From NCBI GenBank assembly GCA_951406725.2, contig OX597833.1:31806001-31870000 (forward strand): a stretch of DNA of 64,000 bases, read 5' to 3'. Origin of the DNA: Octopus vulgaris. Its lineage: Eukaryota. The position numbers and the translations under genes are program-made. Numbering within the stretch: position 1 is the first letter of the stretch; each line of letters begins with the position of its first letter. Of this stretch, positions 23,960-63,300 are shown in pieces. The notes beneath the pieces are model-generated. The model worked only from the letters and a program-made list of their open reading frames with translations, did not search any database and was not told the origin of the DNA.

Positions 23960-23976
23960 TATATATATATATATAC

Positions 23977-25198: not shown

Positions 25199-25242
25199 AT
25201 ATATATGTATGTATATATGTATGTATACATATATATATACAT

Positions 25243-25329
<87 letters not shown>

Positions 25330-25347
25330 CATATATACATATATAAC

Positions 25348-25616: not shown

Positions 25617-25649
<33 letters not shown>

Positions 25650-25961: not shown

Positions 25962-25969
25962 TTTTTATA

Positions 25970-27245
25970 TTTCTTTCAAGCCTACGCATGTCTTCAGCAG
26001 TCACGGCCTATGTTTCACTGCTGTGAAGCATTGCAGTTCACACACATGCATTGTACAATCTACCTTTCACTCAGAGCGAGAGGCTCTTTTTCACCACTAG
26101 GGGTAGAAGCTTTCTAAACTTTGCCCAGGCTATTTTTATTCTAGTGGTAACACTCTCTGAGCATCCACCCCCACCACAGACTTGGTCACCTAGGTAGTGC
26201 AAGCTTTCAACTACTTCTCGTTTCTTTCCCTGGAGTGTAATGGAATTTGTTTTCTGAAGATCTGTGTGTTTATTGCTCCTGTGCATCTACCGCACACGAA
26301 AGCTATCTTCCTGGTTAACCTTCCTTTCATGTTGCTTACACTGGGTATATCTTATGGAGTTTCTACCTACACCTTTTCTACACATCGAGCAGGGCCATCA
26401 ACCTGAAGGGGTATGTGATGTGTTTGCCTTCCTACTTACTAGGACTTTGGTTTTTGTGACATTGACTCTAAGGCCTTTTGATTCTAAACTTTGCTTCAAC
26501 ACCTGAAATTTCTTCTTTAGTTCTGGTAGTGATTCTGCTATGAGGGCTAGGTCATCAGCATAGAGGAGCTCCCAGGAGCAACCTGTCTTGAATTCTTCTG
26601 TTATTGTCTGAAGGACTATGATGAATAAGAGGGTGCTGAGGGCTAACCCTGGTGGACCCCTACTTCTACCTGGAATTCTTCACTATACTCATTGCCAATC
26701 CTAACCTTGCTGATGGCATCTCTGTATAGGGCCTGTACAGCCCTTATTAACCATTCCGCCAATCCCTAGTTTCAGCATCACCCACCAGATAAGGGATCGG
26801 GGGACCCTGTCAAAGGCTTTCACCGAGTCCACAAAAGCCAAGTATAGGGGTTTATCTTTGGCTAGGTATTTCTTCTGCATTTGCCGTACCAGGAATATAG
26901 CATCAGTGGTACTTCTACCTGAGACAAAACCGAACTGCATCTCATCTAAGCAGACTCTCTTCCTAATTAGTTGGGCTATGATCCAGCAGTTTGATACCCC
27001 TGTAGTTATTTCTATCTAAAGCATCACCTTTACCCTTGTAGCAGTTGATTATGGTACTACTACGCCAGTCATTGGGTATGACTCCAGCATGAACTACCTG
27101 GTTTACAATACAGGTGACTAGGCCATAACCCACACCACCAGATGTTTTAAGCCTCTCAGCGGTGATTCCTGATGGGCCGGGTGCTTTTCCTGGCTTCATA
27201 CCCTTAATTGCTTTATCTACCAGAGTGCTGTCTATTTGGATAGCA
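25970..27245 (-). pseudogene. RTE LINE RT region, degenerate
   Basis: KGMKPGKAPGPSGI, NYRGIKLLD, QFGFVSGRSTTDAIF, KAFDRVPR and LLYADDL (about 26550-26570). Confidence 0.92.
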
Positions 27246-27488
27246 TCATAACAAATTCCTATTAGCAAATGAAACATATTTAATGCGGAATAAATAATAC
27301 CAATAAATTTTCCTACATCCTGTTTTGCTATGCAATAATTCTGCGAACAATATTTCCAGAAGTTTCAATTTCAATATGTACTTTGCATTTATACAACAAC
27401 AGTAACTACATACTGGATTGTAATAATGGAGTAAGCAAATGTTCTTCAAGAACAAACAACTCGGATTTTACCATGACTACCTACATTA

Positions 27489-40146: not shown

Positions 40147-40196
40147 ATATATATATATATATATCGGCACAGGAGTGGCTGTGTGGTAAGTAGCTT

Positions 40197-42326
40197 CTTA
40201 CCTTCGTCTGAGTTAGACGTGTTTTTTTGCTGCTCCAGATGTCGTGTTGTTTCAACGCGAAATATTGAACTTTCGTCTCGACTAAAGGTAGGAATTTTGT
40301 GTTTTTGTGAGTTTAGTGAAGCTTTATTGCTTGCATGAATGTTTTTTAACATTTAATATTTTTTAGCAAGTAATAAGGCTCCACTTTTCTCCGAATGTAA
40401 TTTTTCTGCCTGTGTCGAGCGAAAGAAATTGTATTTTTGAAGCGGCTTGGTCCGACTGAAGAGATTATTGTGAAATCGTCATTGTGTGTCCACGGGATTA
40501 CCAAGGATTGTTTACCAAGGGTCTTACCAATGCATTTGGCACGGATTACATTCTGGCCGAAGAAGTGAGAAAAAAAAGAAAACTGAATTCCTTTGCCTAA
40601 TTTGAACTCTCTTTCTCTTCTATCATTTATTTGTTAAAAACTTTTTTGAACTGCCATTTTTATTTTTTCTTCCCTTCTGTTACATTTTTATTCTCCTTTC
40701 TGTGGCTAAATTTAGTTATTATTGAACTATTGTATTTTACGTTATGGCGAAGGCAAGGAATTTTACTGTGTGGGAGTTGGCACCTCCCAAAAAATATTTA
40801 CATGATCTTGAGGAAAGAACCGTGGTGCTGAGAACATTTTCAAAGGTACTCGACACCATAATGGTCTTTCCGAGAGATACCATTGAGAACGAGCTGGCAG
40901 ATATGCCAGCCGTTAAACATATACAACGGGGGTCAAGTACGCAACGGTCTGGTTGCTATTTGACTCCGCCGAAGAAGCTTGCAAATGTGCAAGCCAGCCC
41001 ATTGAGGGCAATGAAATTCTGTTTCTCCCCAGTTACAGGGGGGAAAAACTGTTACGTTTGTGGGTCTGTGGCCTGCCGCCTGGCTTTGAACCCGAGTGGA
41101 TAGAAGACTCTATCCGCCGGGGGCTGGGTGACAGGGACGCCAAGATCCTCAACGTTAAAATGCAGCCTGCGGCTAACTGGGAAGGGTCAAAGGCCACTTT
41201 GACTCTGTGGACCCAGTCGGCCAAGAGTCTGGTTTTTCCGGACTTCCTGAAGATGGCCGGGTCCAGGTACCCGGTGATGCTTGAGGGACGCGCCCCCAAG
41301 TGTCACCGGTGCTCGGAGCCTGGACATATTAAGAAGAAGTGTCCCGGGGGCCGTGGTGCCGCCCCGGAACATGAAAAGGAAAAGGTGCCCGCCGTCCCCT
41401 CATTGGAGGGGGAGACGGTGGAAGTCGTGGAGGAGGTTGCCTCCACGAAAAGAAAGAGGCTGGCAAGCAACAATGGTTGCCCACCAAAGAACGCTCAGGG
41501 GGCGGAGGGGGATAGCAATCCCCCGTGTCTGGTGACGGAGTCCCCTGGGTTAGCAGTCTCCCCCAAAAGAAGGAGGAGAAAAAGGAGAGGTCGGACGTCT
41601 GACGTTTCTGTGTCGCCGACGGAGCCGCGGGTGGGATGTGTGCCACCCGCGGACAAGGCTCCGCCAGTAGGAAGTGAGCCACTGGAGGTCCCTTCCTGTG
41701 AAGAGGAGATGCTTCTCCTCCTCTACCACAAGGGAGAGGAGGTGGAAGATTTCTTGAATGGCTTGAGCGACCGAGAGCGCAAGGGCGCGGTCGGCTCAAG
41801 AAATCCGTTATGGCCTCCGCGGGTAGCTGCGGAAAGGGTAACGGAGGCTATCTTATCAAGGGTCGCAGAGACCTTTGAAAGAAGGCACTTTACCTTTCTC
41901 TTCGCAGGCCCCGACTTGTCGTCGCAGAGTTGTCTGCAGGCGGCAAGACAATTTGCTTCGGGGACCTGACGGGGAGAATTGTTAAACACTTTTTGAACAT
42001 TTTGAACATTTTTAAACATGTTGAAGAGGAGGTTTATCACCTCGTCTGAAAAAATGTAATTTGAACATTTTGAACATTTTTGAACATTTTACTAAATGTA
42101 TTCATTGAACACTGTTATTTTCTGAAATTTTTGAATTTTGAATTTTGTAAAATTTAAAAACATTGTAAAAAGAACATTGTATTAGAGAAGCAGAGGTCGA
42201 CGGGCGCTTCTGACTTCTCCCATCACCATTTTCATCCACCACCACCATCATCCATTAATGTCCTTGTCCAGCCCGGAGCTACCGCTACCTCTGTGTGATG
42301 CCCTAAGTGGCAAATAAAATAAAATA
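40197..42326 (+). mobile_element. ORF1-only non-LTR retroelement (HAL1-like, Tx1/L1-related)
   Basis: TSD aagtagctt (40188-40196 / 42327-42335) inside a family-A SINE head; about 545-bp 5' UTR, ORF1, about 340-bp 3' UTR and (AAAAT)n tail. No endonuclease or RT motifs seen. Confidence 0.8.
40744..41969 (+). CDS. Tx1/L1-type ORF1 (gag-like, zinc knuckle), with one frameshift at the G-run near 40928-40932
   Basis: CHRCSEPGHIKKKC (CX2CX4HX4C). Aligns by eye with the ORF1 at 50200-52101 (PDF...EGRAPKC versus PDF...EGRKPKC; ANWEG versus KNWLG). Basic KRRRRKRR motif. Confidence 0.8.
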
Positions 42327-42346
42327 AAGTAGCTTACTTACCAGCC

Positions 42347-42417
<71 letters not shown>

Positions 42418-42639
42418 AACAGACAGACTAAAAGAGAGGAACTATTACAGAGAATGAGAGAGAATATGTGTAAGCAAGAGAAACAGAGAATAAGAAAAGG
42501 AGAGAGAAGAGAGAAATAAACAAAGAGAGAGAGAAAAGGGAGAGTCGATTGAAAAATGCAGAAAAGGGAGAGAATTGGTTGAAAACTGAAGTTTTTTTAG
42601 AAAAATCCGCGTAAAACACCTTTTTTCCTGGTTTCTCGC

Positions 42640-42794
42640 TTTATGCGGGAGCTCAGGGCAAAATATTATAGTTGATTACCATCCTTGGCACATAAGTAAT
42701 GTGTGTACAAAGTTTGGTGAAAATTGGTTGAAAACTGTAGAAATGCATATGTACTATACACACACAGACACATCCTTTGTTTTATATATAGAGA
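42640..42794 (-). mobile_element. Helitron-type 5' terminus
   Basis: Minus strand A|TCTCTATATATAAAACAAAGGATGTGTCTGTGTG...caaccaattttcaccaaactt, similar to the 8112 terminus. Confidence 0.6.
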
Positions 42795-45289
42795 TATTTC
42801 TCTCATCATTTATAACTTGATATATGTGCACACACAATCAACAGTTAAGCTTTACGTACACACATGCATACATATATACATACACATAAACACACAAATA
42901 TATATATATGCATGCATGTGTGTGTAACAATTTATGTAACATTTCATTTTGTAACAGAGAGAGGGAAAGCAGAAACAATGACAGCCCAACAACGATTGCA
43001 AATACACCGATACACTGATGTGTGTGCGTGCGCGCACACAGAAAAATGCAAGTACTTCTCAATTTATAAATGTACATATTGGTTGACGGATAGAAGCACG
43101 CGTCAACATTCATCTAAAGATTGCACTCTTGCAAATGTTAATAGCATAATTATACAGATGAGAAAAAAAATTGTGTTGAGGTGACTCAAAAATTATTCAG
43201 ATATAAATAAGAATAGAGAGAAGAAATGAAGAACGAAGAAGGGAGATACACAAGGAAAAGCGAACAAATAGAAAGGGTTAGAAGTATACGCTCTCGCAGA
43301 TGCAGGTAGCGATAAAGATCGATAAAGATGAGTGAGACATGAACAAAAGTAAGCATGAATGAGGAGACAGAGAAATTCAGAGTGAAAGAGTTTGGGCGGT
43401 AGAGAGGTAAAAAATTGGAATGTAAAGGAGAAAATGAGGGAGATCGTATTAAACATTCTAATGGAAGAAATCTTTCTCCATTCTTAAGGAAAATAAATAA
43501 TGTACAGAGACCAAGTCAGCTCTGACCGAGTAGATCTATGAACGAATACGTTACAGATTGTGGCTATTTCAGCTTATTTATCTAGCACTGCATTATCTAA
43601 TGTTCCTTTCCTGATTTCAAAAGATGTTATAGGACTTGAAGATTTGGCTACTATTCCTAATAAAGTAAACGATAATAATTTTAATCATGAAAAGTACGAT
43701 AAAGAGAAGAGAGTGAAGAATGATTTTTTTCAAAATGCGAATTATAAATGCTTCGGAATGTGGAATACTATAAAATGTCGAAAAAAATGAAAAAGAAAAA
43801 AAAATTTAATCGTGACGCGATGAATGGAGGTTGAGACGTTTGAAAAACATGGACTAAAATATTTTAAATGAATATCCTCTCCCCACTTAGTGTTTTAAGA
43901 CGTGAGATACTATAAAATATGGAAAATTCCGAAACTAATTCCGGTTGCTGTGTGACAGCTATTCTGAAAGTTCGTATAAGAACGGATTGTTGGAAAGAGA
44001 AAAGGTTACAAGAGGAGAAGGGGGAAAGATCGATAGGAAACTAGGTTTGGGCAGGAAATATGTGGAGTTAAGTTACTATTCTAGAAAGACTGAAACTCTA
44101 ATTTCTCAAATGCTGCTATGAAGTAGAATCTGAACATTCGATCCTTGTCGTTTTTCTCAAATTCTCTCATTCATTTTCACTATTTTCTCTCTCCATTCCT
44201 CTTTCTCTCATATTACCTCATGTCTTTTTCTAATTCCCTATTCCTTTTTCATCTCTTTCTTTTTCCTCTGTTTATATCTCCCTGTCTTAGTTTTTCCTTT
44301 CTTTCAATCTAACTTTTATGTACAGGTGTAAATAAACTTTCTTTGACCTTTGACCCCCAATCCCACTACATTTCAATAGTCCCATTGTGTGTAATTAAAC
44401 CTACAACGACAAGTCACAGACCGATTTAATTTCTACCCTTGTTTGCCTATCGACTCCAATCTTTATCTATCGCCCATTCCTACCATCATATTGTTACCGC
44501 CATTTCCCCACTACCCACGCAAAAAAATATGGAGTCTCGTTGGTGTAGAAATAATAACTGAATCCCCTTTAAATTACGCCCAGTCAATTTAAAGATACAC
44601 TGGACAATGTTATGCCAGTCTGATGTTAAAAAAGGCCAATTGTCATGGGTGGGACTAAACAACTACAACAGCTTTCCGATTCTCTCCGTCTACCTTCTAC
44701 ATCATATACACTACTCCTTACCCTATCAAAAGTAACTGTTTTGGCGATCTTAAGCAATATAAAATGGTTGACTACAAAGTGATAGGAAGTGAGTGAGAAG
44801 CTCATTATATATATCCTGTATGTGTGTAGATGAAATATTCTCATACACTCATAATTTCCTGTTTTCAAGATCAGAAATAGTGACAAGAGTTTTAAACAGT
44901 TATTAGTTTTACCTTAAGTTATACATGATATAGGTATCATGTAAACCAATGAAAACCAACGACCAATCCTACTTGGAGAAGAGGTAGGCATCACTAGGTT
45001 GACTGCCACTGAAATATACTGCTGTACACATATGGCCTCCTTGACTACGGATTTGGGATTGACTAATAGCAATCTGAAAAACTTAATTAAGTATCGTTTA
45101 TTAATTTGGTATGGAATGGTAGAGCATTAACCCCCCCCCCCCCCGAAAAAACAAAACAAACCTTGCAGTATTTATCTACGAGCCCTATATGCTCTAAGTT
45201 CAAATTCCGCTGAAGCCAATTTCATCTTTCATCCTTTTTTACTCAATAAAGGGACAAGAATTGGCGAATGTAAAGCGCGTGCACTGCGG

Positions 45290-46240
45290 TTTTTTTTCCT
45301 CAAAAAATTTCTTCGGATTTCTAGGTTTTCGATATAGGAGAATACGATTTTGCCCAAAATCACGTTTGCAAAATTTTAATTACCCCCTCCCCATCCCTTT
45401 TTCTTAATTTTTAACTTTTTCGAATTTTGTTTTTTAATCCATGTAGAAAAATACAGAGATTACGAATCTGGGAATTTTTTTTAATTTAAAATTTTCTTAA
45501 AGAAACACGCAATGCCCCTTCCCTTACCTCGCCTACCCATCACCTCTCCACTTTCAAAAAGCTAAAAACTCTGTTTTACTTTCGTTTGATATTAGTTTTA
45601 CCTTGCGTAGAATTCTATTGAAATAGCAGATGTCAAAAATATCAGACCACCACCAGAAAACCCAACATGCTAGAAACAACAGCTAAAGGACATTATTTCT
45701 GAAAAAAAAACTTCCCTACTTTCAAAAAAGCTAAAAGTGAAATATTCGGAGTTTTTAGCTTTTTGAAAGGTAGGGGGGGGGGAGTTGGGGTAGGGGATTT
45801 GAGTGTTTCTTTAAGAAAAATAAATTAAAAAATTCTCAAAGATTAATAATCTCTGTATTTTTCTATGTGGATCACTAAAAAAAATTTGAAAAAAGCTAAA
45901 AATTTAAAAATTGGGGTGGGGAGGGGGAAATGAAAAATTTGAAAACATGTTTTTGGGGCAAACATAGAAATCCAAAGAAATTTTGGAAAAAAAAAAGGAT
46001 GGGGGTGCAAATGTCACACCCAAGATGTTAGAAACAACAGCTAAATGACACAATTTCTGAAAAAACTTCCTTTTAAGTTTATATCGAAGATCAGGTTTTA
46101 AATATGCTCATCACAAACACGAATTACAAAATAAAGAAATGGTCATTTCAATTGAGCTGTAATTTTATCTCTTTCTCTCACTTTTTCATTAGAATGTATC
46201 ATGGCACTATGTTGTCACCAAAATGTTAAAACTGACTGAA
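45290..46240. repeat. Left arm of a diverged inverted repeat of about 0.95 kb (mate 61610-62520)
   Basis: For example aatagcagatgtcaaaaatatcagaccaccaccagaaaacccaacatgctagaaac (45622-45677) versus its reverse complement at 62158-62212; colinear along the arm. Confidence 0.85.
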
Positions 46241-46724
46241 GCACGTACTAAAACTCCTCATAACTTTATTTTTAAGAATTTTCAGAAATTTCTTTTCGAT
46301 TCTGTCTACTGCATAATGGAATTAATACAATTATCTAATAACATTTTTTAAGTATTTCCCCACCCTACCCCACTAATTCAAAAACTTACCACTGTTCTTC
46401 GATTCTTAAAAATATTTTTGGTTTTAAATAATAATAATAATCAATTCTTTTTTATTGGCCACAAGGGCTGACACGCATGATTACATAAAGGGACAAGACA
46501 GGACGAAAGGTTACAAAGGGTTTTGCCGTTTTTTTAAAAACATCGAGTAAAAATCTTTATAACAACTTATAAAATTCAACAATAAAAAACTTCCAAAAGT
46601 GGGAGACGTCTCGAAAGGTTCCTGGTGGAAAAAAACCCTACAAAAGCCAACGGGAGCCTGGTCAAAAAAAGGGGGTGTAGAGAGTCCCCTTTCTTCTCCT
46701 TTTACATTACCTTTTTCTTTGAAA

Positions 46725-49700
46725 TCACAGGCGAAACCTGAGAACTGGTCCATTTATACAGGCCAGTCTCGCACAATTCACCCACCTTTCATAAAACTTG
46801 CTATCGGACAGCACTTTCCTCTCTAACCTCATCTTCCTTTTCAAGTGAAACTTGAAAAAGTTGATGAGGCCTTGACCAAAGAGGAAAGTGTCTGACTTTA
46901 GCCCTTTCAAACGAGTCCACCACACAACTTCTTTCGCCACAGCCACAAGGCACAAGAAAACGGCCTCGCCCTCCTTGTTAAAGGAGGTCGGCGGGGCAAT
47001 CTTCACAATGGATTCGGCCGATAGTCGGATCCGTCCTACACGTGACAGTAGCTGTTCGACATAAACCCATATATCAGCAATACTCGGGCACTGGACGAGT
47101 GCGTGCAGAACGGTTTCATCGTCCTGGCAACACCTCGGGCAGGCCCGGCTGACGGCACTTCCGTGCCGGTAGAGTTTATCTCGAACAGGCAGAGCCCCTC
47201 GGTAGCACTGCCAGGCGAGAGACCTCTGGAAATTATCCATCGGCCCCGGCCCGAAAGTCCTCCCGAACAGACCGCTCAGTTCGTCGTCTTCAACGCCTAG
47301 AGTTTCCCCGAGAACGTCGTCGCATTTTTCCTCCACTAACCCTCTATAGAACGCTAGAGTGGAGCTGTAACCGACCGCATTGCCCGCCTGGTGGAGGGCG
47401 GAGAGGGCTTGACGGCACTCGAGGTGCCAAGCGCCCTTTCTCGGTCTACGTTTGATCCAGGTCTGCAGCTCCGTCAAAGAGACGAGCTGCGGAAAATCGC
47501 GTCTGACAAAAGACGACCACACCTGTTCACCGTCTAGGAAGCGCTTGAGATGCCGCAGCCTGAGCGCATGTCTGCGCAACAGCAACCACGGCATTCCAAG
47601 GCCTCCGTTCAGCGGTCGTTGACAGCAGATGGATCGCCTGACCAGTGGCACCTGACCCTTCCACAAAAAGTCGAAGAGCAGACGTACCAGCTTGGCCAAC
47701 CAGCGGTCGGGACAAGGGACGACGGTCAAGCGGTAATAGATGACGGATGCGATGTACGCATTCGCCACCTCCGCTCGACCTTTCAGGGACAGCTTCCTCT
47801 CGGCCCATTTCTGGGTGAGACGTGCCACCCTGCTCGTCACCTCTTCCCAGTTCTTATCCACCTGGAGGTCCGGACCGAACCAGACCCCGAGCAGTTTAAC
47901 GGGTCCGTCTGTCCAGCGCCCTACGACGCTGTTGGACGGCATGGGCTTGCCTCTCCAGGTGCCCAGTTGCAAGCCCACAGACTTTTCCGCGTTAATCTTT
48001 GCCCCTGTCACCGCTTCGTACTGGTTTAGCGTCTCGCCAATCAGGCCAATGTGCCTGTGGCTCGACACCACCACGGTGACGTCGTCGGCATAGGCAGACA
48101 CGCTGTTTCCGCCTCCTAGATCGCGCGGGATACCCCTCAAAGCCTCCAACTTGCGCAGTAATGGCTCGAGAGTCAAAATGTACAAGAGGGAGGAGAGAGG
48201 GCATCCTTGGCGGACCGAACGCGAGATGTCGAACGGTTCCGAAAGGTGACCGTTCACCCGTATCACTGAGCAGATGTTGCTGTATAAAGCAGCGATCCAC
48301 CCGCGGAAGACTGGACCGAAGCCGGCTGCCCTGAGGACAGCTGCCAGGTACCGATGGTCGACCCTATCGAAGGCTTTACTCTGATCCAAGTTGATCAAAG
48401 CCCCACCCGCGCCAGCGTCGTTACCCACCCTCTCTATGATGTAGCGCATGAGATGGAGGTTGTCGTGTATCGACCTGGTCGGCACGGCGCATGTCTGCGT
48501 CTCGCCGACCAGCTTGTCCACGACAAGCGCCAATCTCTTGGCTAGCACCTTGGCCAAAATCTTCAACTCTGCATTGAGCAGAGTGATGGGCCGGAAATTC
48601 CCTATAACGTTCCCCTTGTTTGGGTCCTTCTTTAGCAAAGCCACCACCCCTCGACAGACAAAAGCAGGAATTCTCCCGTTTTGCTGCCAGTTGCAGTAGA
48701 CGTTTGCCAACAGGTCCGCAAACAAGTCTGGCATTGAAAAGTAAAGCTCGTAGGGCAGACCATCCAAACCCGGCGATCTACCTCTCGTGCAACTCTTCAT
48801 CGCTTCCTGTACTTCCCAGGCAGATATCGGTCCTTCGCAGCACTCTGCCTCGCTGTCCGAGAGTTGCGGCAGTCCGTCCAGGTACACACCGAAGTCTGTA
48901 CCGTTGGTGTCCGTTCCACCGCTCGTCCCAAACAGTTGAGCAAAGTGCCGCTGAAGCACCGTACACATCTGCTTCGGTTGGGTAACCTCGCGCCCGTTCT
49001 GGTCCACCAAAGACCGAATGGTTGCTCTGTTGCCTCGCTTCGCCTCCGCCACGCGGGCCCATCGAGCGGCTCTAGTCCCCTCCCCGCTTAGCGAACGTGC
49101 CTTAGCTCTGACAACGCAGCCTTCGTGTTTGGCGTCGAAGTGTTGGTCGAGGGCCAACCTTGCCACCAACACGTCGGTCGCGATGCCAGTGTCAAGAGCC
49201 TCGTCTAGTTTCTTAACTAAATCCCGCTCTCTCTTCCTACGTTCAATAGCTAGAGTCTTACTATACCTAATCGACTCTACTCTAATTGCTCTCTTGAGGG
49301 CAAACCACCAGTTGTTGTTGATGATTGCCCCCGTGAGCGCCCGCTTAACTAGTAAACTAATCCGGTCTCTGTAAGCTTTGCACGCCGTTAACGACGCGTT
49401 CAGCTTCCAGTAGCCGGGTCCCTGTCTATGTAGCCTATCTAAGTCGACCGTACAGATCACTAATTTGTGGTCCGTATATTCGACTAGGTAGAATTGTGGA
49501 CACCCTACGCTGTCCTTATCCGCTGGCCTACAAAACACTCTATCTAAGTACGATCTAGACGACCCGATGCGGTTTGTCCAAGTCCACATTGGCACATTCG
49601 GGTTGTCTAGTCGAAACCTGTCGGACAGCTGAAAGCGGCCGAGTAGGTTGGCGAGGCTCTTGCACCCTCCCCCTCTCCTAACAGACGCTCCCCTGCCCAC

Positions 49701-50159
49701 CCGATCGAAACGTTCGTCTAAGACAGCGTTCCAATCCCCAACTAGTACTAGAGTGCGTGACGTTCCCAGGAAAACTTCCAGACGTTTGAAATAATCCGAC
49801 TGCCCTGCTCCTGTCGGAGCGTAGGCAGCCAGCAGTCTGAAAGCACCGCCGTCACTACCGTCGACGTCGAGGACCACCAACTTACCTTCCGGATCCAAGA
49901 AGACTGTCCTTATTTTCAGGTCCAGGCCCTTCCGAAACAACACCGCAGTACCACCACCGCCCGCTCCCGGCCGACACGGAGATAGAAATATCTCGTATCC
50001 GCCGAAAAGGGCTGCGAGTTCCTGCGGGTCGGAGAGCCTGGTTTCACTGATGGCTGCTACATCCACATCATGAAACCTCAGGTCGTTTAACAGGTGACCC
50101 TGTTTCCAAGGTGACCCGAGGCCTCTCACATTCAAGCAACCGATTCTAAGATTTGCCAT
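46725..50159 (-). CDS. LINE ORF2: APE endonuclease, reverse transcriptase and CCHC zinc finger (1144 aa)
   Basis: CLNVRGL, ISET, VGDWN, SYLDR, TDH; GPGYWKLN; SPGLDGL, FRPITLLN, DQSKAFDRV, RQGCPLS, YADD; CPRC....ETVLHALVQC. Confidence 0.97.
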   Translation of the reverse strand: MANLRIGCLNVRGLGSPWKQGHLLNDLRFHDVDVAAISETRLSDPQELAALFGGYEIFLSPCRPGAGGGGTAVLFRKGLDLKIRTVFLDPEGKLVVLDVDGSDGGAFRLLAAYAPTGAGQSDYFKRLEVFLGTSRTLVLVGDWNAVLDERFDRVGRGASVRRGGGCKSLANLLGRFQLSDRFRLDNPNVPMWTWTNRIGSSRSYLDRVFCRPADKDSVGCPQFYLVEYTDHKLVICTVDLDRLHRQGPGYWKLNASLTACKAYRDRISLLVKRALTGAIINNNWWFALKRAIRVESIRYSKTLAIERRKRERDLVKKLDEALDTGIATDVLVARLALDQHFDAKHEGCVVRAKARSLSGEGTRAARWARVAEAKRGNRATIRSLVDQNGREVTQPKQMCTVLQRHFAQLFGTSGGTDTNGTDFGVYLDGLPQLSDSEAECCEGPISAWEVQEAMKSCTRGRSPGLDGLPYELYFSMPDLFADLLANVYCNWQQNGRIPAFVCRGVVALLKKDPNKGNVIGNFRPITLLNAELKILAKVLAKRLALVVDKLVGETQTCAVPTRSIHDNLHLMRYIIERVGNDAGAGGALINLDQSKAFDRVDHRYLAAVLRAAGFGPVFRGWIAALYSNICSVIRVNGHLSEPFDISRSVRQGCPLSSLLYILTLEPLLRKLEALRGIPRDLGGGNSVSAYADDVTVVVSSHRHIGLIGETLNQYEAVTGAKINAEKSVGLQLGTWRGKPMPSNSVVGRWTDGPVKLLGVWFGPDLQVDKNWEEVTSRVARLTQKWAERKLSLKGRAEVANAYIASVIYYRLTVVPCPDRWLAKLVRLLFDFLWKGQVPLVRRSICCQRPLNGGLGMPWLLLRRHALRLRHLKRFLDGEQVWSSFVRRDFPQLVSLTELQTWIKRRPRKGAWHLECRQALSALHQAGNAVGYSSTLAFYRGLVEEKCDDVLGETLGVEDDELSGLFGRTFGPGPMDNFQRSLAWQCYRGALPVRDKLYRHGSAVSRACPRCCQDDETVLHALVQCPSIADIWVYVEQLLSRVGRIRLSAESIVKIAPPTSFNKEGEAVFLCLVAVAKEVVWWTRLKGLKSDTFLFGQGLINFFKFHLKRKMRLERKVLSDSKFYERWVNCARLACINGPVLRFRL

Positions 50160-50199
50160 GTTTCAAAAGTTAGGGGAAAAAAAAAGGAGAAAAAAGGCT

Positions 50200-51025
50200 C
50201 TACTTACTGTTGTTGGTGGTGGGGGTGGCTCCCTTGTGCTTTTGCACGGGTGCTTCAATAATATTTTTGTAAAGTTTCTGAGAGAAACTTTTCCCTAGCG
50301 ATCCCACATCGTTAGGGAATATTTGTTTTATTTCGTTGTAAACTGTTTTGTTTATTTTTATTGTGAGAATGTGTGCTGGTGGTGTGTTGTGTGTAGGTAT
50401 TATGAAATCTGTAATGTTTGTGCTTGTTTTGTTTTTCAAATACTCAACCAGTTCCTGGTTTCTTGTATTCACTGCTGTAATCGTGTCTGTAATTGTGTCT
50501 GTGTTTGTTTGTGTCTGTGGTAGTGGCAGTAGTGGTGTCGAAAGTGTTGTTGTTGTTGTTGTTTGTTGTTGTGAGTGTGTGTTGTTGTTGATGTTGTTGT
50601 TGATGTTGGGAAGTACTATTTGTTCGTGCTTCCCCTGTAAATCTTTTTGTTTTTTCCTCCTTTTCTTTTTTGGAGGCACTATGTTCCATTCTCCTTTGTT
50701 GGAATCAGAGCTCGCACAATCCGAGATCTCTTCATCCGGCAAAGGAATGGTTGAGGGGTCTGCTTCAGTAGCAGGACGAAAAGTTTTTGGTTCCGCCGGT
50801 ATCGGTGGTGCCGCTGCTCCTGTTACTGTTGATGTCGCTGCTGTCGACCTTCGAGGTACTGGTGTCGGTGTTGGTTTGGTGGTGGTTGTCGGTGTTGGTT
50901 TGGTGGTGGTTGTTGTTGTTGGAGGTGGTGTTGTTCGTCTTGGTGCTGGTGTTGGTGATGGTGTTGGTGGTGTGGCAGCCTTTGGTTTTTCTTGCTGTTT
51001 TTGTTGTTTCTGTTGTTGTTGCTTG

Positions 51026-51059
<34 letters not shown>

Positions 51060-52101
51060 GCTGCTGCTGCTGCCTCTTGCTGAAAGCCTCCATCCTCTTT
51101 TTGTGAATGGGACAGTCCCTCTTTAAGTGGCTTTCGCTGCTGCAGAGGAAACATTTTGGCTTTCGCCCCTCCACAGCAACGTTTAGCCTGGTGCCGTCCG
51201 GCAAACTTACGAAATCAGGGACTTTACTTATATTCTCTTGCTGAATTTGCGCAAGAAGCAGCACTCCCATCCCCAACCAGTTTTTCGCCCTCACTCTCCT
51301 GACATCTAGAATGGTGGTAGTGTCCTCTATATCATAGAGGACAGCTGCCACCAGCCATGACATATCTAGCTCAGGGGGTGCGAGGTCGATTTTTATTTTT
51401 GTTACTCTTCGCCCGAGGTGGGTTGGAACTAGTAACAAATTCTCAGTTTGCAAGGGCGAAATGGTGTTCGCCCTTGCAAGCTCCTCTGTTGGGAAGCGAA
51501 CCTCCACGGTTCCAAAACGCTTCCCCTTGGTTACGTAGCTCTTTTGGGCCCAAATGGGCTTTAGAGCTATCTCCAACTGTTGGGGTGTGGCATTTGTTAT
51601 TCTTTTTAGTTTTCTGTCGAAAACTTTGTAAATGATTGTTTTTTTGTTGGTGTTTTCAATCACCTCTTGTGGAGTATTGAGGAAGATGCCATTGCCATCC
51701 TTCCTCAACAATTCCTTCGCTCTTTTCACATCTTCTAGAGTTATCTTAACTTCCTCCGAAATTTGCTTCGCAGCAGAAGCAAAATTATTGGAAGTTTTTT
51801 CTTTTATCTCCGTGTCAATGTTTGTGATGATTTTTGTATTTGTTGTTTTTCCCTCCTCCTTCCGTACCAAAGCATTGGGTGAAGGCAGAGGGGGAAAATC
51901 AAGAGTGACGTCGAACGCGACGTCCTGGCTTGCATTCTCCTTTTGAACCGAGCGCGTGCTCTCCGGTTCGGAAGGAGGAGCTTTGTTGCCTTTTACGGCC
52001 TGAAATGGGTTGTTCGCAACCCGTGACGTTATTTTTTTTTGTTCTTGTGGTGGGGGTGTTGCAAGAAGGAGGGAAGAGCCAGCAGCTCGTTTCAGTGACA
52101 T
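50200..52101 (-). CDS. LINE ORF1 (633 aa from the first ATG): zinc knuckle, poly-Q and P/T-rich linker
   Basis: First in-frame ATG at 52101 (MSLKR...), CFLCSSESHLKRDC, PKKKRRKK. Confidence 0.92.
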
Positions 52102-52338
52102 TTTGTAATGTGTGTGTGCAAAAAATGTCAATTTCAAAAGGATAGACAGTAATTTCACCCCGAATGGGGCAAAATTTCGCCCAACCGACGAGCTCCGCAA
52201 GAAGCCGGTCGGTTTGGCTACAAAAATATTAAAAAATATTCAAACTTATCAAATGAATTCCAATGAAATTGGTGTCAAATTCACGGAGCTGATTCACGTA
52301 CGTCCATCGGCGTCGGAAGGAATAATAATAATAATAAT

Positions 52339-55300
52339 CAATTCTTTTTTATTGGCCACAAGGGCTGACACGCATGATTACATAAAGGGACAAGACAGGA
52401 CGAAAGGTTACAAAGGGTTTTGCCGTTTTTTTTTTAAAACATCGAGTAAAAATCTTTATAACAACTTATAAAATTCAACAATGAAAAACTCCCAAAAGGG
52501 GGAGACGTCTCGAAAGGTTCCTGGTGGAAAAAACCCTACAAAAGCCAACGGGAGCCTGGTCAAAAAAAGGGGGTGTAGAGAGTCCCCTTTCTTCTCCTTT
52601 TACATTACCTTTTTCTTTGAAATCACAGGCGAAACCTGAGAACTGGTCCATTTATACAGGCCAGTCTCGCACAATTCACCCACCTTTCATAAAACTTGCT
52701 ATCGGACAGCACTTTCCTCTCTAACCTCATCTTCCTTTTCAAGTGAAACTTGAAAAAGTTGATGAGGCCTTGACCAAAAAGGAAAGTGTCTGTCTTTAGC
52801 CCTTTCAAACGAGTCCACCACACCACCTCTTTCGCCACAGCCACTAGGCACAAGAAAACGGCCTCGCCCTCCTTGTTAAAGGAGGTCGGCGGGGCAATCT
52901 TCACTATGGATTCGGCCGATAGTCGGATCCGTCCTACACGTGACAGTAGCTGTTCGACATAAACCCATATTTCAGCAATACTCGGGCACTGGACGAGTGT
53001 GTGCAGAACGGTTTCATCGTCCTGGCAACACCTCGGGCAGGCCCGGCTGACGGCACTTCCGTGCCGGTAGAGTTTATCTCGAACAGGCAGAGCCCCTCGG
53101 TAGCACTGCCAGGCGAGAGATCTCTGGAAATTATCCATCGGCCCCGGCCCGAAAGTCCTCCCGAACAGACCGCTCAGTTCGTCGTCTTCAACGCCTAGAG
53201 TTTCCCCGAGAACGTCGTCGCATTTTTCCTCCACTAACCCTCTATAGAACGCTAGAGTGGAGCTGTAACCGACCGCATTGCCCGCCTGGTGGAGGGCGGA
53301 GAGGGCTTGACGGCACTCGAGGTGCCAAGCGCCCTTTCTCGGTCTACGTTTGATCCAGGTCTGCAGCTCCGTCAAAGAGACGAGCTGCGGAAAATCGCGT
53401 CTGACAAAAGACGACCACACCTGTTCACCGTCTAGGAAGCGCTTGAGATGCCGCAGCCTGAGCGCATGTCTGCGCAACAGCAACCACGGCATTCCAAGGC
53501 CTCCGTTCAGCGGTCGTTGACAGCAGATGGATCGCCTGACCAGTGGCACCTGACCCTTCCACAAAAAGTCGAAGAGCAGACGTACCAGCTTGGCCAACCA
53601 GCGGTCGGGACAAGGGACGACGGTCAAGCGGTAATAGATGACGGATGCGATGTACGCATTCGCCACCTCCGCTCGACCTTTCAGGGACAGCTTCCTCTCG
53701 GCCCATTTCTGGGTGAGACGTGCCACCCTGCTCGTCACCTCTTCCCAGTTCTTATCCACCTGGAGGTCCGGACCGAACCAGACCCCGAGCAGTTTAACGG
53801 GTCCGTCTGTCCAGCGCCCTACGACGCTGTTGGACGGCATGGGCTTGCCTCTCCAGGTGCCCAGTTGCAAGCCCACAGACTTTTCCGCGTTAATCTTTGC
53901 TCCTGTCACCGCTTCGTACTGGTTTAGCGTCTCGCCAATCAGGCCAATGTGCCTGTGGCTCGACACCACCACGGTGACGTCGTCGGCATAGGCAGACACG
54001 CTGTTTCCGCCTCCTAGATCGCGCGGGATACCCCTCAAAGCCTCCAACTTGCGCAGTAATGGCTCGAGAGTCAAAATGTACAAGAGGGAGGAGAGAGGGC
54101 ATCCTTGGCGGACCGAACGCGAGATGTCGAACGGTTCCGAAAGGTGACCGTTCACCCGTATCACCGAGCAGATGTTGCTGTATAAAGCAGCGATCCACCC
54201 GCGGAAGACTGGACCGAAGCCGGCTGCCCTGAGGACAGCTGCCAGGTACCGATGGTCGACCCTATCGAAGGCTTTACTCTGATCCAAGTTGATCAAAGCC
54301 CCACCCGCGCCAGCATCGTTACCCACCCTCTCTATGATGTAGCGCATGAGATGGAGGTTGTCGTGTATCGACCTGGTCGGCACGGCGCATGTCTGCGTCT
54401 TGCCGACCAGCTTGTCCACGACAAGCGCCAATCTCTTGGCTAGCACCTTGGCCAAAATCTTCAACTCTGCATTGAGCAGAGTGATGGGCCGGAAAGTTCC
54501 TGGTTTCTTGTATTCACTGCTGTAATCGTGTCTGTAATTGTGTCTGTGTTTGTTTGTGTCTGTGGTAGTGGCAGTAGTGGTGTCGAAAGTGTTGTTGTTG
54601 TTGTTTGTTGTTGTGAGTGTGTGTTGTTGTTGATGTTGTTGTTGATGTTGGGAAGTACTATTTGTTCGTGCTTCCCCTGTAAAACTTTTTGTTTTTTCCT
54701 CCTTTTCTTTTTTGGAGGTACTATATTCCATTCTCCTTTGTTGGAATCCGAGCTCGCACAATCCGAGATCTCTTCATCCGGCAAAGGAATGGTTGAGGGG
54801 TCTGCTTCAGTAGCAGGACGAAAAGTTTTAGGTTCCGCCGGTATCGGTGGTGCCGCTGCTCCTGTTACTGTTGATGTCGCTGCTGTCGACCTTCGAGGTA
54901 CTGGTGTCGGTGTTGGTTTGGTGGTGGTTGTCGGTGTTGGTTTGGTGGTGGTTGTTGTTGTTGGAGGTGGTGTTGTTCGTCTTGGTGCTGGTGTTGGTGA
55001 TGGTGTTGGTGGTGTGGCAGCCTTTGGTTTTTCTTGCTGTTTTTGTTGTTTCTGTTGTTGTTGCTTGTGTTGTTGTTGTTGTTGTTGTTGTTGCTGCTGC
55101 CTCTTGCGATACTCCTCCATTCTCTTTTTTTGAATGGGGCAGTCCCTTTTTAGGTGGCTTTCGCTACTGCAGAGGAAACATTTTGGCTTTCGCCCCTCTA
55201 CAATAACATTTAGCCTGGTCCCATCCAGCAAGATGACAAAGTCAGGTATGGCATTGATGTTTTCCTGCTGGATCTGTACCAGCAGTTGAATACCCATGCC

Positions 55301-56248
55301 TGACCAGTTCTTTTCTCGTACCCTCCGAACATTCAGAATAGTGGCAGTGTCCTCTATGCCATAGAGGACAGCCGCCACTAGCCATGAGATTTTCTGTTCG
55401 GGGGGTATTGTGCTTATAGTAATTTTTTTTGTACCTTACGCCCGAGGTACGTCGGGACGAGGAACAAATGTTCATTTTGCAAGGGCGAAATGGCGTTCGC
55501 CCTTGCAAGCTCCTCTGTTGGGAAGCGAACCTCCACGGTTCCAAATCGCTTCCCTCTTGTTACATAGCTCTTCTGGCCCCAAATGGGCTTCAGAGCCATC
55601 TCCAACTGTTGTGGTGTGGCGTTAAACAATCTTTTAGTTTTCTTTTCGAAGACTTTATAAAAGATTGTTCTTTTGCTTGTTTCTTGTGTGAGTTGTTGAG
55701 GTGTGTTGAGGAAAACACTGTTCCCCTCCTTTCTCAACAAATCTTGTGCCATTTTTATGTCCTCCATTGTAATTTCTACATCTTCCGAAATTTGCTTCGC
55801 AGCAGAAGCAAAATCGTTAGAAGGTTTTACAGTTTTTTGTTGGTTCTTGTCTGTGTTTGTGTCTGTTATAATTTTCTTTACCTCCCCCTTCGGTACAGCA
55901 TCACTTGTTGAAGGCAGAGGGGGAAATCAAGAGTGACGTCGAACGCGACGTCCTGGCATGCATTCTCCTTTTGAACCGAGCGCGTGCTCTCCGGTTCGGA
56001 AGGAGGAGCTTTGTTGCCTTTTACGGCCTGAAATGGGTTGTACGTGCAAAAAATGTCAATTTCAAAATATAAAACAGCAATTTCACCCCGAAGGGGCAAA
56101 ATTTTCGCCCAACCGACGAGCTCCGCAAGAAGCCGGTCGGTTTGGCTACAAAAATATTAAAAAATATTCAAGCTTATTAAAAAATTTCCAATAAAATTGG
56201 CACAAAACTCACAGAGCTGATTCACGTACGTCCATCGGCGTCGGAAGG
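52339..56248 (-). mobile_element. Tx1/L1-clade LINE copy B, internally deleted
   Basis: Same termini as copy A. Lacks the equivalent of 48598-50450 (junction 54495/54496) and the ORF1 start (junction near 56040); ORF1 is frameshifted. Confidence 0.95.
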
Positions 56249-56269
56249 AATAATAATAATAATAATAAT

Positions 56270-59200
56270 GAAATTATTGTATACAGTGCTCAGGTGCACC
56301 ACAACTTGTCAAAAGTGCATATAAAGCATATGTAGTAATGTACAAATGTCTGGAAAATGAACAGCGTATGAGTCAGATACATGCTTGCGTGTGTATGGAG
56401 GGGAGAAAATCAGGTGTAGTGTTGGCGAATCTCAGGAAGCATGGAAGTTTTGAAGGATGCAGCGCTCCGACAACTAACAACTGATGCAGGCAGGTTGTTC
56501 CATACTTTAGCAACTCTTAGCGTGAAAAAAAGTTTCCAAAAGTCATGGGAGGTGGAGTTTGAAAAGGTGCTCAGAGTTATTGTTTGTAAGATGGTTGATA
56601 ATTTTACGGGTGTCTGCCAAGTCAGCTGCCAGACGTCGGAGCTTCAATGTATCCATGCCCAGGGAAGAAAGGCGTTCAGAATATGGCAGATGCCTGATGG
56701 AGGGTATTCTCTTGGTTGCACGTCGCTGAACGGCTTCCAGACAATTAATATCCTGTGCAAGATAGGGGTTCCAGACCGGTGATGCAAATTCCAGGTGAAG
56801 TCGCACCATAGCTATATAAAGCCGCAGTTAGATAGCCGGAGGGCGGCTCGCAAAGGACTTGGTGAGTGATGTCAAGACACCCTCAGCCTTCTTGGCAATT
56901 TTAGCAACGTGTTTTGTCCAACGCAAATCACTTTCGACAATAATGCCCAGGTCACGTTCACAAGAAGACTTTTTGAGATTAGTGTTGTGGAGGGAGTAAG
57001 TAGATGCTGGGTTTTTCCTCACCAAATGCATGCTGGTACATTTGTCCACAGCCAGCTTGAGTTGCCAGTCCATGATCCACTGCTGCATTGTGTCCAGGTC
57101 TGATTGCAATAAAGATCTATAGTGTATAGGTATACTCTTTATTTCGAAGTACAGCTTGATGTGATCTGCATATTTCAGCACTGTGGCATTCTTTAAGTTG
57201 ACATCTATGTCATTAACATATGCAACAAATAAAAGGAGGCCAAGAACAGATCCTTGTGGTACACCAGATGTCATCTCATAGGGTGAGAGTGCTGTCCTAG
57301 AACTGTGAGAACCTCTTTTCAGCCAATAATGAAGGACTTCAACTAGTTATAGAGATCATCTCTTACACCCATTGCAGAGAGTTTCACCGTAAGTCTTTTG
57401 TGTGACACAGAATTAAAAGCCTTAGCAAAGTCCAGGTGAACAACTTCCACCCAGAATCCGCGATTAGTGATTCGGGTAATGTCCTCAAGTTGATTACAGC
57501 AGCTGGAATAAAACCAAATTGTGACGGCTGGATGAGGCTGTGAGACTTCCAGAAGTTCCAGAGGGTCTCTCTGATACAGGATTCCATCAGTTTGGCAATG
57601 CAGCTAGTAAGACTAACGGGACGATAGTTGACAGGCGATGTGTGGTCACCTTTTTTGAACAGAGGGATAACACTGGCAGTTTTCCACTGCTCTGGAGTAA
57701 CACCATTGTCAAGACAGAATTGAAAGAATAGTGAAAGTTGGTTTAGAAGAAAGTACCCACCACGTTTGAGAAGTAGGTATGTAACACCATCGAGACCAGG
57801 AGAGGCATAGTTACGTTTATTCTTAAGGTGGCGTTGTAGCATTGCTGGTGTAAATTTCATAGTAGTTATAGAGTCCGGTGACAGAGGTGATGGAGATGGA
57901 ACATTTTGATCTTCGACAGTAAAGATGCCTGCATAGCATCCAGCAATGATTTCTGCACATTCTTTGGGATTGCCAGTAATCTGCCCTGTGTGGGGATTGC
58001 GAAGGAGACCAACGGGAGAGTGAGGTCTCTGCTTTGAATGTATATACTTCCAGAACACTTTGCTGTCAGGGTTGGCTGCTATGCATTGTTCGAATTCAAG
58101 CACTGCCTTTTTTGTCACCTGCTTGAGATGGTTGGCTGATCTATTGCGCTTTTTCCTGTTGATCTCTGATGTGTGCAATTTGTATTCCTGTTCAGCATTA
58201 CGGCGTTCTTTCCCGGCAAGTCGGACTGCTGCAGTTTCCCAAATTGCACTATTGGGTGGATTTTGTGCTTGCGTGGCACCGATGCTGCACATGTCATCCA
58301 TATTGAATTCAGAATGTTCTGAAGTATAGTGTTTACATCTCCAGACATAAAATTCGAGCCAGTTTGGGCGTCGCAGCTTGGTACAATAAGAGCTCCAGTC
58401 TGCTTTATTCCAGTCAAAACGGGCAGTTTGAATATGGTTGTGGTTTTTGTTACAACCAATCAGAGACAAGTCGGCCGTGATCATGGAATGATCAGAGTCA
58501 CCTAAAGGTTCTTCAGTAGTGACACTAACAGTTGTTTTAGGAGACGTGGTAAATAGCAGATCCAAAGTGTTGTTACCCCTTGTGGAGGAGGTAACGACTT
58601 GGGACCAATTTGAATACCAGTTCAAGGAATTCGTCTGCACTTTGCGGCCCACGGAAGGCCTCCCAGTCAATCTCAGGGAAATTGAAGTCCCCTGCAATAT
58701 AAACATAAGTGGCTGTTTTCCTGGCAGCAGCTCTGAGGATAATTTTTTTGGGGTGGGGCGGTAAACAACTCCAAGTAGAAGTGTTGACATGGTCATGTGT
58801 ATATTGCAGAAAAATACTTTCTGTTGAGATTGAGTGCAGAATGTGCCCATGTTTCCATGACTGTGATGAAATCTGGGTCAATACTTTTGATGTAAGAGTC
58901 AAAAAGATGTACCTTGTTGCATAAACTACGGGCATTTACGGACAACAGTTTGTATCTGGATTTTAGATGGCGATGATATACAGGGGATGGCTGATTGTTC
59001 TTGTTCAGTTTCCCATGATTTTTGTATTGCCAGTTATTGTGGGTGCAGTTTGCTCAGACCAACTGATATCCCTTATCCACGACTCACCAGGCTTGATGAA
59101 TTTCCATATTTGCCCATCGTCACGTAGGCTAAAGCTTTCCTGTGGCACAGAGTTGCAATTTAGGGAAGCTACAGATTTTAGCTTTGGGCATACATCAGGT

Positions 59201-59900
59201 GGTAGGCCAGGACGTGTCCTAAAGGTAATTCTGTTTACGCACCAAGCCCTATCAGCAGCTAGATGGTATGCCCGCGCCTCGGTAGAGTTCGAAAACAACA
59301 GCCTAATCAATCTGGGTTTGGATCCTGGTCAGCCAAGGCGGAAAGCACTTTTTGGAGGAACACAGCTTAGGTCCTTAGATGTGTTGCTAGTAAATGCCTG
59401 TAGATCTACCACATCTTCCGATACTCCGATGGCAATTACCTCATGAGTGGTTGATTCAGTAACTTCCTCGATGCGTTGAGGTTCCATAAGAGCTATGGGT
59501 AAATTGCTGAGCAAGGCACTCCGATACGATCCCTCATTGTGAGGTTTTGCACACTAGTTTTGATTCCTGCTATTTTGTGGCTTAAAGCAGAAATCCTTTG
59601 TCGAATTTCCGCAACTTCTGTACTGATGGCCGATTTTTGTTGATGTTGAGAAGTATCGGGAGACAGACAGTTTAATTCTGCCATTTGTTTCTCTTTATAA
59701 TTTTCAAATAATTTTTAAAATACTTTGAAATCAAAATTGTTGCGAGTTTGTTTAAGAAAAAATCATTTACTAACAGAAAATTATGTTATTAAAATAAATT
59801 ATCTCTAACATACCTTTAAATTGTTGTGAGAAAAACATTTACTTACAGAATTATGTTATGAAAATGGATTATCTGTAACATACCTTTAAATTATTGCGGA
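56270..59900 (-). mobile_element. Degenerate near-full-length CR1-type LINE
   Basis: ORF1 remnants (coiled-coil-like 59493-59684; AFRLG..PRLIRL), IAGDFNFPEIDW, LDLLFT, LGDSDH, NYRPVSLTS, SGVPQGSVLG, KYADH, ERDLGI, LEAVQRRATK; tail ...tttc(ATT)n. Confidence 0.92.
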
Positions 59901-60108
59901 TAAAGTACTAAAACTCAAAAACTTGCCCATGAAGTGTACAATCCAAATTTCAATGTGATTGTGACCTTCTTGCTAGGGGTTACTCTTATCTCGAAAAAAC
60001 GACAGGGGTCTTTTTTGTAAGAAATAAAGAGAGAGTACGTATTGTGTCATTCTTTCAATTTTCCCGGCAAAGGAAGTTTTGCATACTTGCAGTATATGAC
60101 AACACAAA

Positions 60109-60878
60109 AGGCGGTGAGCTGGCAGAATCGTTAGCATGCCGGGTGAAATGCTTAGCAGTATTTTGTCTGCTGCTACGTTCTGAGTTCAAATTCTGCAGCG
60201 GTCGACTTTGCCTTTCATCCTTTCGGGGTCGATTAAATAAATACCAGTTACGCACTGGAGTCGATGTAATCGACTTAATACCTTTGTCTGTCCTCGTTTG
60301 TCCTCTCTGTGTTTAGCCCCTTGTGGGTAGTAAAAAAATAGGTATTTCGTCTGCCGCTACGTTCTGAGTTCGAATTCCGCCAAGGTCGACTTTGCCTTTC
60401 ATCCTTTCGGGGTTGATAAATTAAGTACGCACTGGGATCAATATAATCGACTTAGTCCGTCTGTCTGTCCTTGTTTGTCTCTTCTGAGTTTAGCCCCTTG
60501 TGGGTAGTGAAGAAATAGGTATTTCGTCTGCCGCTACGTTCTGAGTTCAAATTCTGCCGAGGTTGACTTTGCCTTTCATCCTTTCGGGGTCGATGAAATG
60601 AGTACCAGTTACGCACTGGGGTCGATATAATCGACTTAATCCGTTTGTCTGTCCTTGTTTGTTCTCTCTGTGTTTAGCCCCTTGTGGGTAGTAAAGAAAT
60701 AGAAATAGGTATTTCATCTGTCTTTAGGTTCTGAGTTCAAATTCCGCTGAGGTCGACTTTGCCTTTCTTCTTTTTGGGGTTGATAAATTAAGTACCAGTT
60801 GTGTGCTGAGATCATTGTAATCGACTGGCTCCCACCATTAAAATTTCGGGCCTTGTGCCTAGAGTAGAAAAGAAAAGA
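60109..60878 (+). mobile_element. Head-to-tail concatemer of four family-B SINE units
   Basis: One complete unit (60109-60341), then units restarting at gtatttcgtctg (about 60342, 60519 and 60709); the last unit has a different tail. Confidence 0.92.
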
Positions 60879-63075: not shown

Positions 63076-63300
63076 AAGGTGGCCAGCAGACAGAATTGTT
63101 AGCACGCCAGGCAAAATGCTTAGTGGCTTTTCATCTGTTTTTATGTTCTGTATTCAAATTCCGAATTCCGCTAAGGTTGACTTTGCCTCTCATCCTTTCA
63201 GAGTTGATAAAATAAGTACCAGTCAAGTGCTGGGATTCATGTAATTGACCAGCCCCATCTTCTGAAATTGCTGGACTTGTACCAAAATTTGAAACCAATA
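63076..63300 (+). mobile_element. Old family-B-related SINE
   Basis: aaggtggccagcagacagaattgttagcacgccaggc...gttgataaaataagtaccag. Confidence 0.75.

Follow-up and report, generated by a model that had tools for sequence, protein, structure and literature searches.

Long interspersed elements (LINEs) of the L1 clade are the textbook exception to the sharing of 3´ tails between LINEs and short interspersed elements (SINEs). L1-clade LINE/SINE pairs having a conserved 3´ hairpin with compensatory changes were described in maize, sorghum and Chlamydomonas, and only three SINEs with L1-clade tails were counted against over 800 L1-clade LINEs (PMC3747384). The crocodilian SINEU was assigned to Tx1-Mar by their common target, which is another transposon; its insertions occur in tandem, the preference is weaker in some SINE families (13–90%), and for SINEU-1 no LINE with significant 3´ similarity was reported (PMC4494074). 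Target-specific families of the Tx1 clade include Tx1 in Tx1D, Kibi in (TC)n, Koshi in (TTC)n and Keno in U2 (PMC4494074), and the first open reading frame (ORF1) of this clade has an RRM/CCHC knuckle and is not of the mammalian Transposase_22 type (PMC5203782). HAL1, HeT-A and Ag-Sponge are non-autonomous LINEs with ORF1 only; HAL1 proper descends from an L1-clade ORF1 (PMC5786205), of the mammalian type as inferred from PMC5203782. Here we analysed a stretch of 64,000 nucleotides from Octopus vulgaris (assembly GCA_951406725.2, contig OX597833.1, positions 31,806,001 to 31,870,000, forward strand), called the window, in which an autonomous L1/Tx1-type LINE (LINE-A), an element with ORF1 alone (the ORF1-only element, family H) and a SINE family (SINE B) end in related tails, and we followed these families through the genome.

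We consider it likely from sequence comparison that the tail is a shared, probably ancestral feature of one LINE clade, and that the ORF1-only element uses a second family, LINE-B, and SINE B a third, LINE-C, neither of them using LINE-A. LINE-A ended inside ATT repeats at all 68 distinct ends examined. ORF1-only elements ended at AAGTAG, a single position in the head of another SINE, in 56 of 57 cases, and LINE-B shares this target, AAGTAGCTT in the SINE head, in 30 of 30 sampled copies (from at least 40 in the genome), 27 being inserted directly into the SINE head and three into another stacked element. LINE-C ended at GTATT, again in 30 of 30 copies sampled from at least 40, with 27 in a SINE body and three in a stacked element; within members of the SINE B family, its target, GTATTTCGTC, is found at position ~50. 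Among 84 SINE B ends, 32 ran into the family's own body at position ~50, and none was found at the strict LINE-B target or within (ATT)n repeats, one loose pattern match proving not to be a repeat. Since the endonuclease mainly sets the target (PMC4494074), three targets point to three enzymes, and because the landing sites are common to these families, the passengers likely borrow the copying enzymes of LINE-B and LINE-C.

A sequence-only reading of the window had located five tails in sense orientation, and all five were found within a few bases of where it had placed them; two additional tails of SINE B were located near 60465-60519 and 60650-60703. The features concerned are:

46427..52320, minus strand: full-length autonomous LINE-A copy with 5´ untranslated region (UTR), ORF1, ORF2, 3´ UTR, tail and (ATT)n
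50200..52101, minus strand: LINE-A ORF1, 633 amino acids from the ATG, CCHC zinc knuckle (Pfam zf-CCHC weak, E 0.095)
46725..50159, minus strand: LINE-A ORF2, 1144 amino acids, intact frame with AP endonuclease, reverse transcriptase (RT) and zf-RVT (Pfam)
46442..46505, minus strand: LINE-A tail, hairpin GCC-CTTGT-GGC and AATAAA, followed by (ATT)n
52321..56248, minus strand: second copy of LINE-A, joined head to tail to the full-length one (tail 52339-52402, (ATT)n spacer 52321-52338)
40166..40187, plus strand: 5´ SINE head, landing site of the ORF1-only element and LINE-B
40188..40202, plus strand: 5´ target-like copy AAGTAGCTTCTTACC
40203..42326, plus strand: ORF1-only element (family H), ORF1 at 40744-41969, frameshifted in this copy, CCHC knuckle
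42258..42326, plus strand: ORF1-only tail, hairpin TGCC-CTAAGT-GGCA at 42299-42312, LINE-B-type end
42327..42342, plus strand: 3´ target copy AAGTAGCTTACTTACC
37339..37571, plus strand: SINE B monomer within a degenerate RT-encoding element, hairpin GCCC-CTTGT-GGGT at 37545-37557
60109..60703, plus strand: stack of three SINE B units; a head is present in one, the two others start at body position ~50, and every tail enters GGTATTTC, the LINE-C target
60704..60870, plus strand: remainder of the apparent host of these SINE B insertions, a SINE with the same body but another tail

Tail segments of 76 nucleotides were scored against 500 dinucleotide shuffles, and the similarity was above chance for all three pairs. 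The LINE and SINE tails scored 42–43 (z 4.3–5.1; 0–2 of 500 shuffles equally high), the LINE and ORF1-only tails 34 (z 3.7–4.4; 1–4 shuffles) and the SINE and ORF1-only tails 32–37 (z 4.0–5.1; 0–2 shuffles). Among 3366 window tiles, the top non-self matches to the LINE tail were the SINE B and ORF1-only tails; the link between LINE and ORF1-only tails was modest, with 34 against 32 for the best unrelated tile, and one unrelated tile reached 39 when the ORF1-only tail was the query. The tails are genuinely similar, the ORF1-only pair modestly so. The tails have in common a block resembling TCTRTGT, a stem of 4 bp closing a loop of 5 nt, and AAT(A)AA; together with the shuffle scores, these parts support the earlier claim of homologous tails of L1/Tx1-type origin. 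The last 10–20 bases, which lay outside the tails quoted in the sequence-only reading, differ among the three families, and it is these bases that settle the question of the partner.

A hairpin with compensatory changes across families is predicted in the RNA of these tails. The 4-bp stem preceding AATAAA was paired in 35 of 36 cells among nine lineage representatives, and three of the four pairs had changed on both sides, an outcome reached by none of 500 shuffles. Controls slid along the alignment dropped to 17–53%, the outcome was similar on 14 rows, and RNAalifold recovered the hairpin on anchored 30-mers. The covariation that the sequence-only reading had proposed to look for is present and fits recognition of the stringent type. 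Like the stringent pairs of plants and algae, the octopus families combine an L1-clade LINE with a compensated 3´ hairpin common to SINEs; unlike those pairs, which have poly(A) ends, they belong to an animal clade and show target-like ends, several targets and two kinds of passengers. That a hairpin tail is conserved in an L1/Tx1-type clade of an animal bears on the question whether stringent recognition was the original state of the L1 clade.

LINE-B was encountered as a second autonomous family mixed into the head-to-tail arrays in which ORF1-only elements stack (loci L098, L107, L109 and L110). It is young and has at least one intact ORF2 copy, with an open frame of 1150 amino acids. The ORF1-only tail scored 44–59 with LINE-B against 24–43 with LINE-A on 76-mers, and 38–46 against 10–34 on the terminal 39-mers after removal of the target bases. 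A short stretch antisense to the target is also present in both, with 9 nt in LINE-B and 5–7 nt in five ORF1-only tails (in the window AGCTAC, upstream of the hairpin), compared with at most 4 nt in LINE-A, LINE-C and SINE B. L107 is a chimera, ORF1-only at the 5´ side and LINE-B at the 3´ side, with a joint that lacks a target site. The target-like copy preceding the element in the window is probably element-borne, because it is unlike the 3´ copy.

The ORF1-only element contains ORF1 alone, has no remnant of ORF2, is multicopy and has fixed ends. Its proteins form their own clade (support 100/100) with subfamilies 44–96% identical, and the sole database relative, from Octopus sinensis, is 57% identical; look-alikes in the Atlas bear zf-CCHC and ZCCHC3 RNA-binding domains. 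The ratio dN/dS was about 0.11–0.22 in 11 between-subfamily pairs, in which dS is near saturation, and 0.22–0.73 in four close pairs; ORF1 is under purifying selection. Because the protein is just 24–31% identical to the ORF1 of LINE-A, LINE-B or family E, the element does not derive from LINE-B by simple deletion, and its sequences mark it as an old lineage, not a recent deletion derivative. It resembles HAL1, HeT-A and Ag-Sponge in having one ORF1-like protein, no RT, a LINE-type 3´ end and a long-lived lineage with subfamilies; unlike these, it derives from an L1/Tx1-type clade with CCHC ORF1, targets a single base in a SINE head and forms arrays mixed with its autonomous partner. HAL1 proper was rejected as its identity, the ORF1 being of CCHC type and homologous to the ORF1s of the clade.

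A second, separate ORF1-only lineage, nearer to the ORF1 of B and E, has the same SINE-head target (L094:5775-7034; L197:8680-9303). The family at L197 was dismissed as a carrier of the ORF1-only tail; it has a tail of its own and is merely inserted in an ORF1-only copy. Some ORF1-only 5´ UTRs contain tandem monomers of ~200 bp (L007, L009, L014, L015), an arrangement resembling mouse L1 promoters.

LINE-C was found through a pattern joining the hairpin end to the SINE body: 30 of its 58 matches were examined, and one locus had ORF2 directly upstream. Its tail ends in GGGCAATAAAGAAATTGG or a close variant, that of SINE B in GGGYARTAAAGAAATAGG with the stem as in LINE-C. Five full-length LINE-C copies, at least five among 15 stretches, lie between SINE head and body with a duplication of ~16 bp (L348-L351, L354); the longest open ORF2 frame seen was 1101 amino acids. 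The SINE head before these five is of the variant GCGTAGCC and their end is TCGTATT, compared with TGGTATT in other copies, and the 3´ end tracks the target variant. On the terminal 39-mers minus target bases, SINE B tails scored 36–48 with LINE-C, 30–40 with LINE-A and 12–20 with LINE-B, and mean pairwise difference was 7.7% in LINE-C and 6.9% in SINE B, compared with 0.6% in LINE-A and 0.3% in LINE-B. The hairpin, 3´ end, target and age of SINE B agree with those of LINE-C. As a stringent-type pair, SINE B and LINE-C have 3´ terminus, hairpin and insertion signature in common, with an upstream tail that fits LINE-B better; SINE B and LINE-A differ in their last bases and share neither terminus nor insertion signature.

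Across the genome (2.8 Gb), a looser pattern, which misses copies having C as the final base, matched 81,466 SINE B tails; 34,000 SINE B tails enter the LINE-C target. In 6 of 38 cases, tandem SINE B tails were followed by a body ending in the tail of a sister SINE, as at 60704-60870, which fits insertion into an existing SINE, and the array at 60109-60870 likely arose by insertion of SINE B at position ~50. As for SINEU and Tx1-Mar, SINE and LINE have a common target, the target is a transposon and insertions are in tandem; unlike for SINEU-1, tail and hairpin are also common, and the target is a SINE, of SINE B's own family. Insertion by LINE-C would account for a large and so far unassigned share of the SINE copies and for their tandem arrays.

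Several observations weigh against LINE-B and LINE-C as the respective partners. Over half of the SINE B tails are off the LINE-C site, and the remaining 52 of the 84 ends examined weakly prefer (N)RTAT. The tail alone does not pick LINE-C, family D being equal to it on the terminal 39-mer (41–42); on 76-mers SINE B scored 53–61 with LINE-B and 42–57 with LINE-C, and a 26-nt exact block common to SINE B and LINE-B has no counterpart in LINE-C. The ages derive from best-hit samples that are skewed to young copies, the ORF1-only/LINE-B chimera was seen once only, and the ORF1-only protein is distant from the ORF1s of the clade, as given above. The hairpin is short, its alignment was anchored on the stem, and the shuffles do not take relatedness into account. 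For 20 tails of 76 nucleotides without this anchor, RNAalifold predicted no consensus structure, and single-sequence folds gave the hairpin a probability above 0.2 in just 11 of 21 tails.

Part of this could be explained by cross-mobilisation, which we regard as unlikely. Several members of the clade would read the hairpin, SINE B being copied by LINE-C at its own body and by B-, D- or extinct lineages at the dispersed sites, with the RNA 3´ end also picking the site. The SINE B tail is indeed a mosaic, its 5´ block like LINE-B and its terminal block like LINE-C and D, and ends at AGAA sites were found for 5 of 15 copies of the GGGCAAT variant versus 2 of 67 of the GGGTAGT variant, a small sample; the majority of tails outside the LINE-C target would also be covered. 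However, the mosaic match is equally expected if SINE B has retained an older form of the tail, the dispersed sites start with (N)RTAT, a relaxed form of the LINE-C target, and none of the 84 SINE B ends lies at the strict LINE-B target or in (ATT)n.

It is very unlikely that the arrays arose by duplication at the DNA level or from multimeric masters moved as a whole, which would make the 34,000 junctions an overestimate of homing and the tail no more than the relic of an old LINE-C-type fragment captured by the SINE. A single target duplication flanks one trimer (L063) and some arrays contain near-identical units (L335), as expected of such events, but LINE-C is found independently at the same base, bodies with sister-SINE tails follow tandem tails elsewhere as they do in the window, and monomers have the duplications typical of this machinery, roughly 13–17 bp long at 13 of the 52 dispersed ends.

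We return to LINE-B and LINE-C as the preferred partners. Three other patterns aimed at the SINE B partner did not yield one: a pattern of SINE head and LINE-like 5´ motif had four matches, none a LINE; SINE B tails with non-SINE sequence upstream had 1,299 matches, of which the 100 examined by eye look SINE-derived; and LINE-B-type upstream sequence joined to the SINE hairpin had one match, apparently SINE-derived. A protein search with a database relative gave 150 matches, of which the 50 examined were all of the LINE-A lineage.

The SINE B head contains TGGCAGAAACG and GAGTTCAAATTCC, which by eye we take to be A-box-like and B-box-like; ARAGORN predicted no tRNA gene in SINE B, and a search of Rfam with E up to 1 likewise gave no tRNA. 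One variant of SINE B, with the end AATAAG, has a second self-target, AGAAACGTTAG, at position ~17 of the SINE head (L124, L141, L341). Sister SINEs with SINE B head and body have a hairpin with the LINE-A loop CTTGT and a reversed stem, GGC/GCC (60810-60870 and 63230-63294; L080, L089, L114, L161), often followed by ATT-rich ends; they are a candidate passenger of LINE-A or of another clade member.

LINE-A itself is young, with many intact ORF2 copies, and its 3´ 471 nt have at least 39 other genome copies at 98–99%. ORF2 contains the Pfam domains Exo_endo_phos, RVT_1 and zf-RVT, as expected of an L1/Tx1-type LINE, in which an AP endonuclease at the N terminus and a zinc motif at the C terminus flank the RT; the best sequence match in PDB was human L1 ORF2p (E 1.5e-51, residues 3-860), with R2 at 5e-23. 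Of two close database relatives of ORF2, one is from Argonauta hians. In the second copy in the window, ORF1 is diverged and carries a frameshift, and near 54495 it passes into the 3´ half of ORF2; this copy is a recombinant, and its ORF1 has 74% amino acid identity. LINE-A also forms long head-to-tail arrays with ~5.9-kb spacing (G000 C50, C47, C4:93.80-93.83 Mb).

That LINE-A alone reads the tail and drives both passengers, as the sequence-only reading had proposed, is hardly tenable: its tail is significantly similar to both, it is young and intact and it has the loop CTTGT in common with SINE B, but targets and 3´ ends are disjoint, LINE-B and LINE-C match better in target and 3´ end, and (ATT)n ends are kept across older LINE-A subfamilies of 80–99% protein identity. 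The target census largely refutes LINE-A as sole driver. The idea of one lineage behind both passengers holds for the whole clade and fails for LINE-A, and the better fit of the tails to another LINE was found inside this clade rather than in a different one.

An RT tree with 25 rows united seven families (A to F and I) and two database proteins in one clade (support 100/99), in which LINE-A lay outside the B-C-D-E-F group (100/99), B grouped with E/F (100/99) and C with D (94/88). RT identity was 69% for A-B, 64% for A-C and 66% for B-C, and 60–96% among the seven families overall; D, E, F and I have cognate tails. The tree's database neighbours are unnamed or hypothetical and its rows include no named Tx1 reference; the type of ORF1, with a CCHC motif in every aligned ORF1 and no Transposase_22 match in LINE-A, and the target preference of A, B and C are consistent with Tx1. 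As in Tx1, Kibi, Koshi and Keno, there are two ORFs, an AP endonuclease-RT and family-specific targets that shift within the clade; unlike in these, LINE-A is found in (ATT)n, and LINE-B and LINE-C in two different SINEs. Family F mostly ends at GAGTTAGTTCCCC, in clusters on contigs C27 and C2 (L209-L222), family E at CACTAT-like sites, with 2 of 11 copies in ORF1-only elements and others in SINEs (L198-L208), and family I, with a hairpin tail, has (TATC)n flanks (L336:1784-7177). A further hairpin-tail family ends in (TC)n, a Kibi-type target (L337:2343-2720).

In target-primed reverse transcription, a nick is followed by priming at the 3´ end of the RNA. In the octopus clade, the ORF2 protein (ORF2p) would bind the hairpin region of the RNA and the endonuclease would nick its own target, where the target-like last bases of the RNA could pair with the nicked primer, so that endonuclease and 3´ end together would fix the address of insertion. 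Target copies borne at the 5´ end of the element would restore the site, and elements may stack head to tail because the insert restores it; SINE B would home into its own family because the LINE-C target lies in the SINE B body. Headless SINE B units might arise when the head of the cDNA anneals to the head of the host, and the ORF1-only lineage likely supplies its own RNA chaperone in cis. It is possible, if doubtful, that the tail is a two-part code, in which any ORF2p of the clade accepts the common hairpin and an exchangeable 3´ address directs insertion through pairing of RNA with DNA. SINE B would then have taken up an address in its own body and created a self-feeding loop of landing pads for SINE and LINE, and hence be among the most abundant elements of the genome.

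The octopus clade offers at least six targets and several passengers, and thereby natural swaps for dissecting the contributions of endonuclease, hairpin and last RNA bases to the choice of template and target. It also urges caution in scans, where a common tail names the clade and the target alone names the partner. Thirteen recently active L1-Tx1 families were reported in PMC13282606, whose available portion does not mention 'tail', 'target' or 'partner', and the available portions of PMC8967140 and PMC4758252 do not describe the present families. A literature search covering titles and the beginnings of abstracts found no description of them; Repbase, SINEBase, the 1994 octopus SINE paper and supplements were outside its scope and may name them.

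Elsewhere in the window, degenerate helicase/Rep-like reading frames at 3965-7184, partly duplicated near 13650-14950, suggest a Helitron by their motifs. Degenerate RT-encoding elements of other LINE types are located at 37100-39760, 23955-27360 and 56400-58900, and from their motifs we assume that they are RTE-like and CR1-like.

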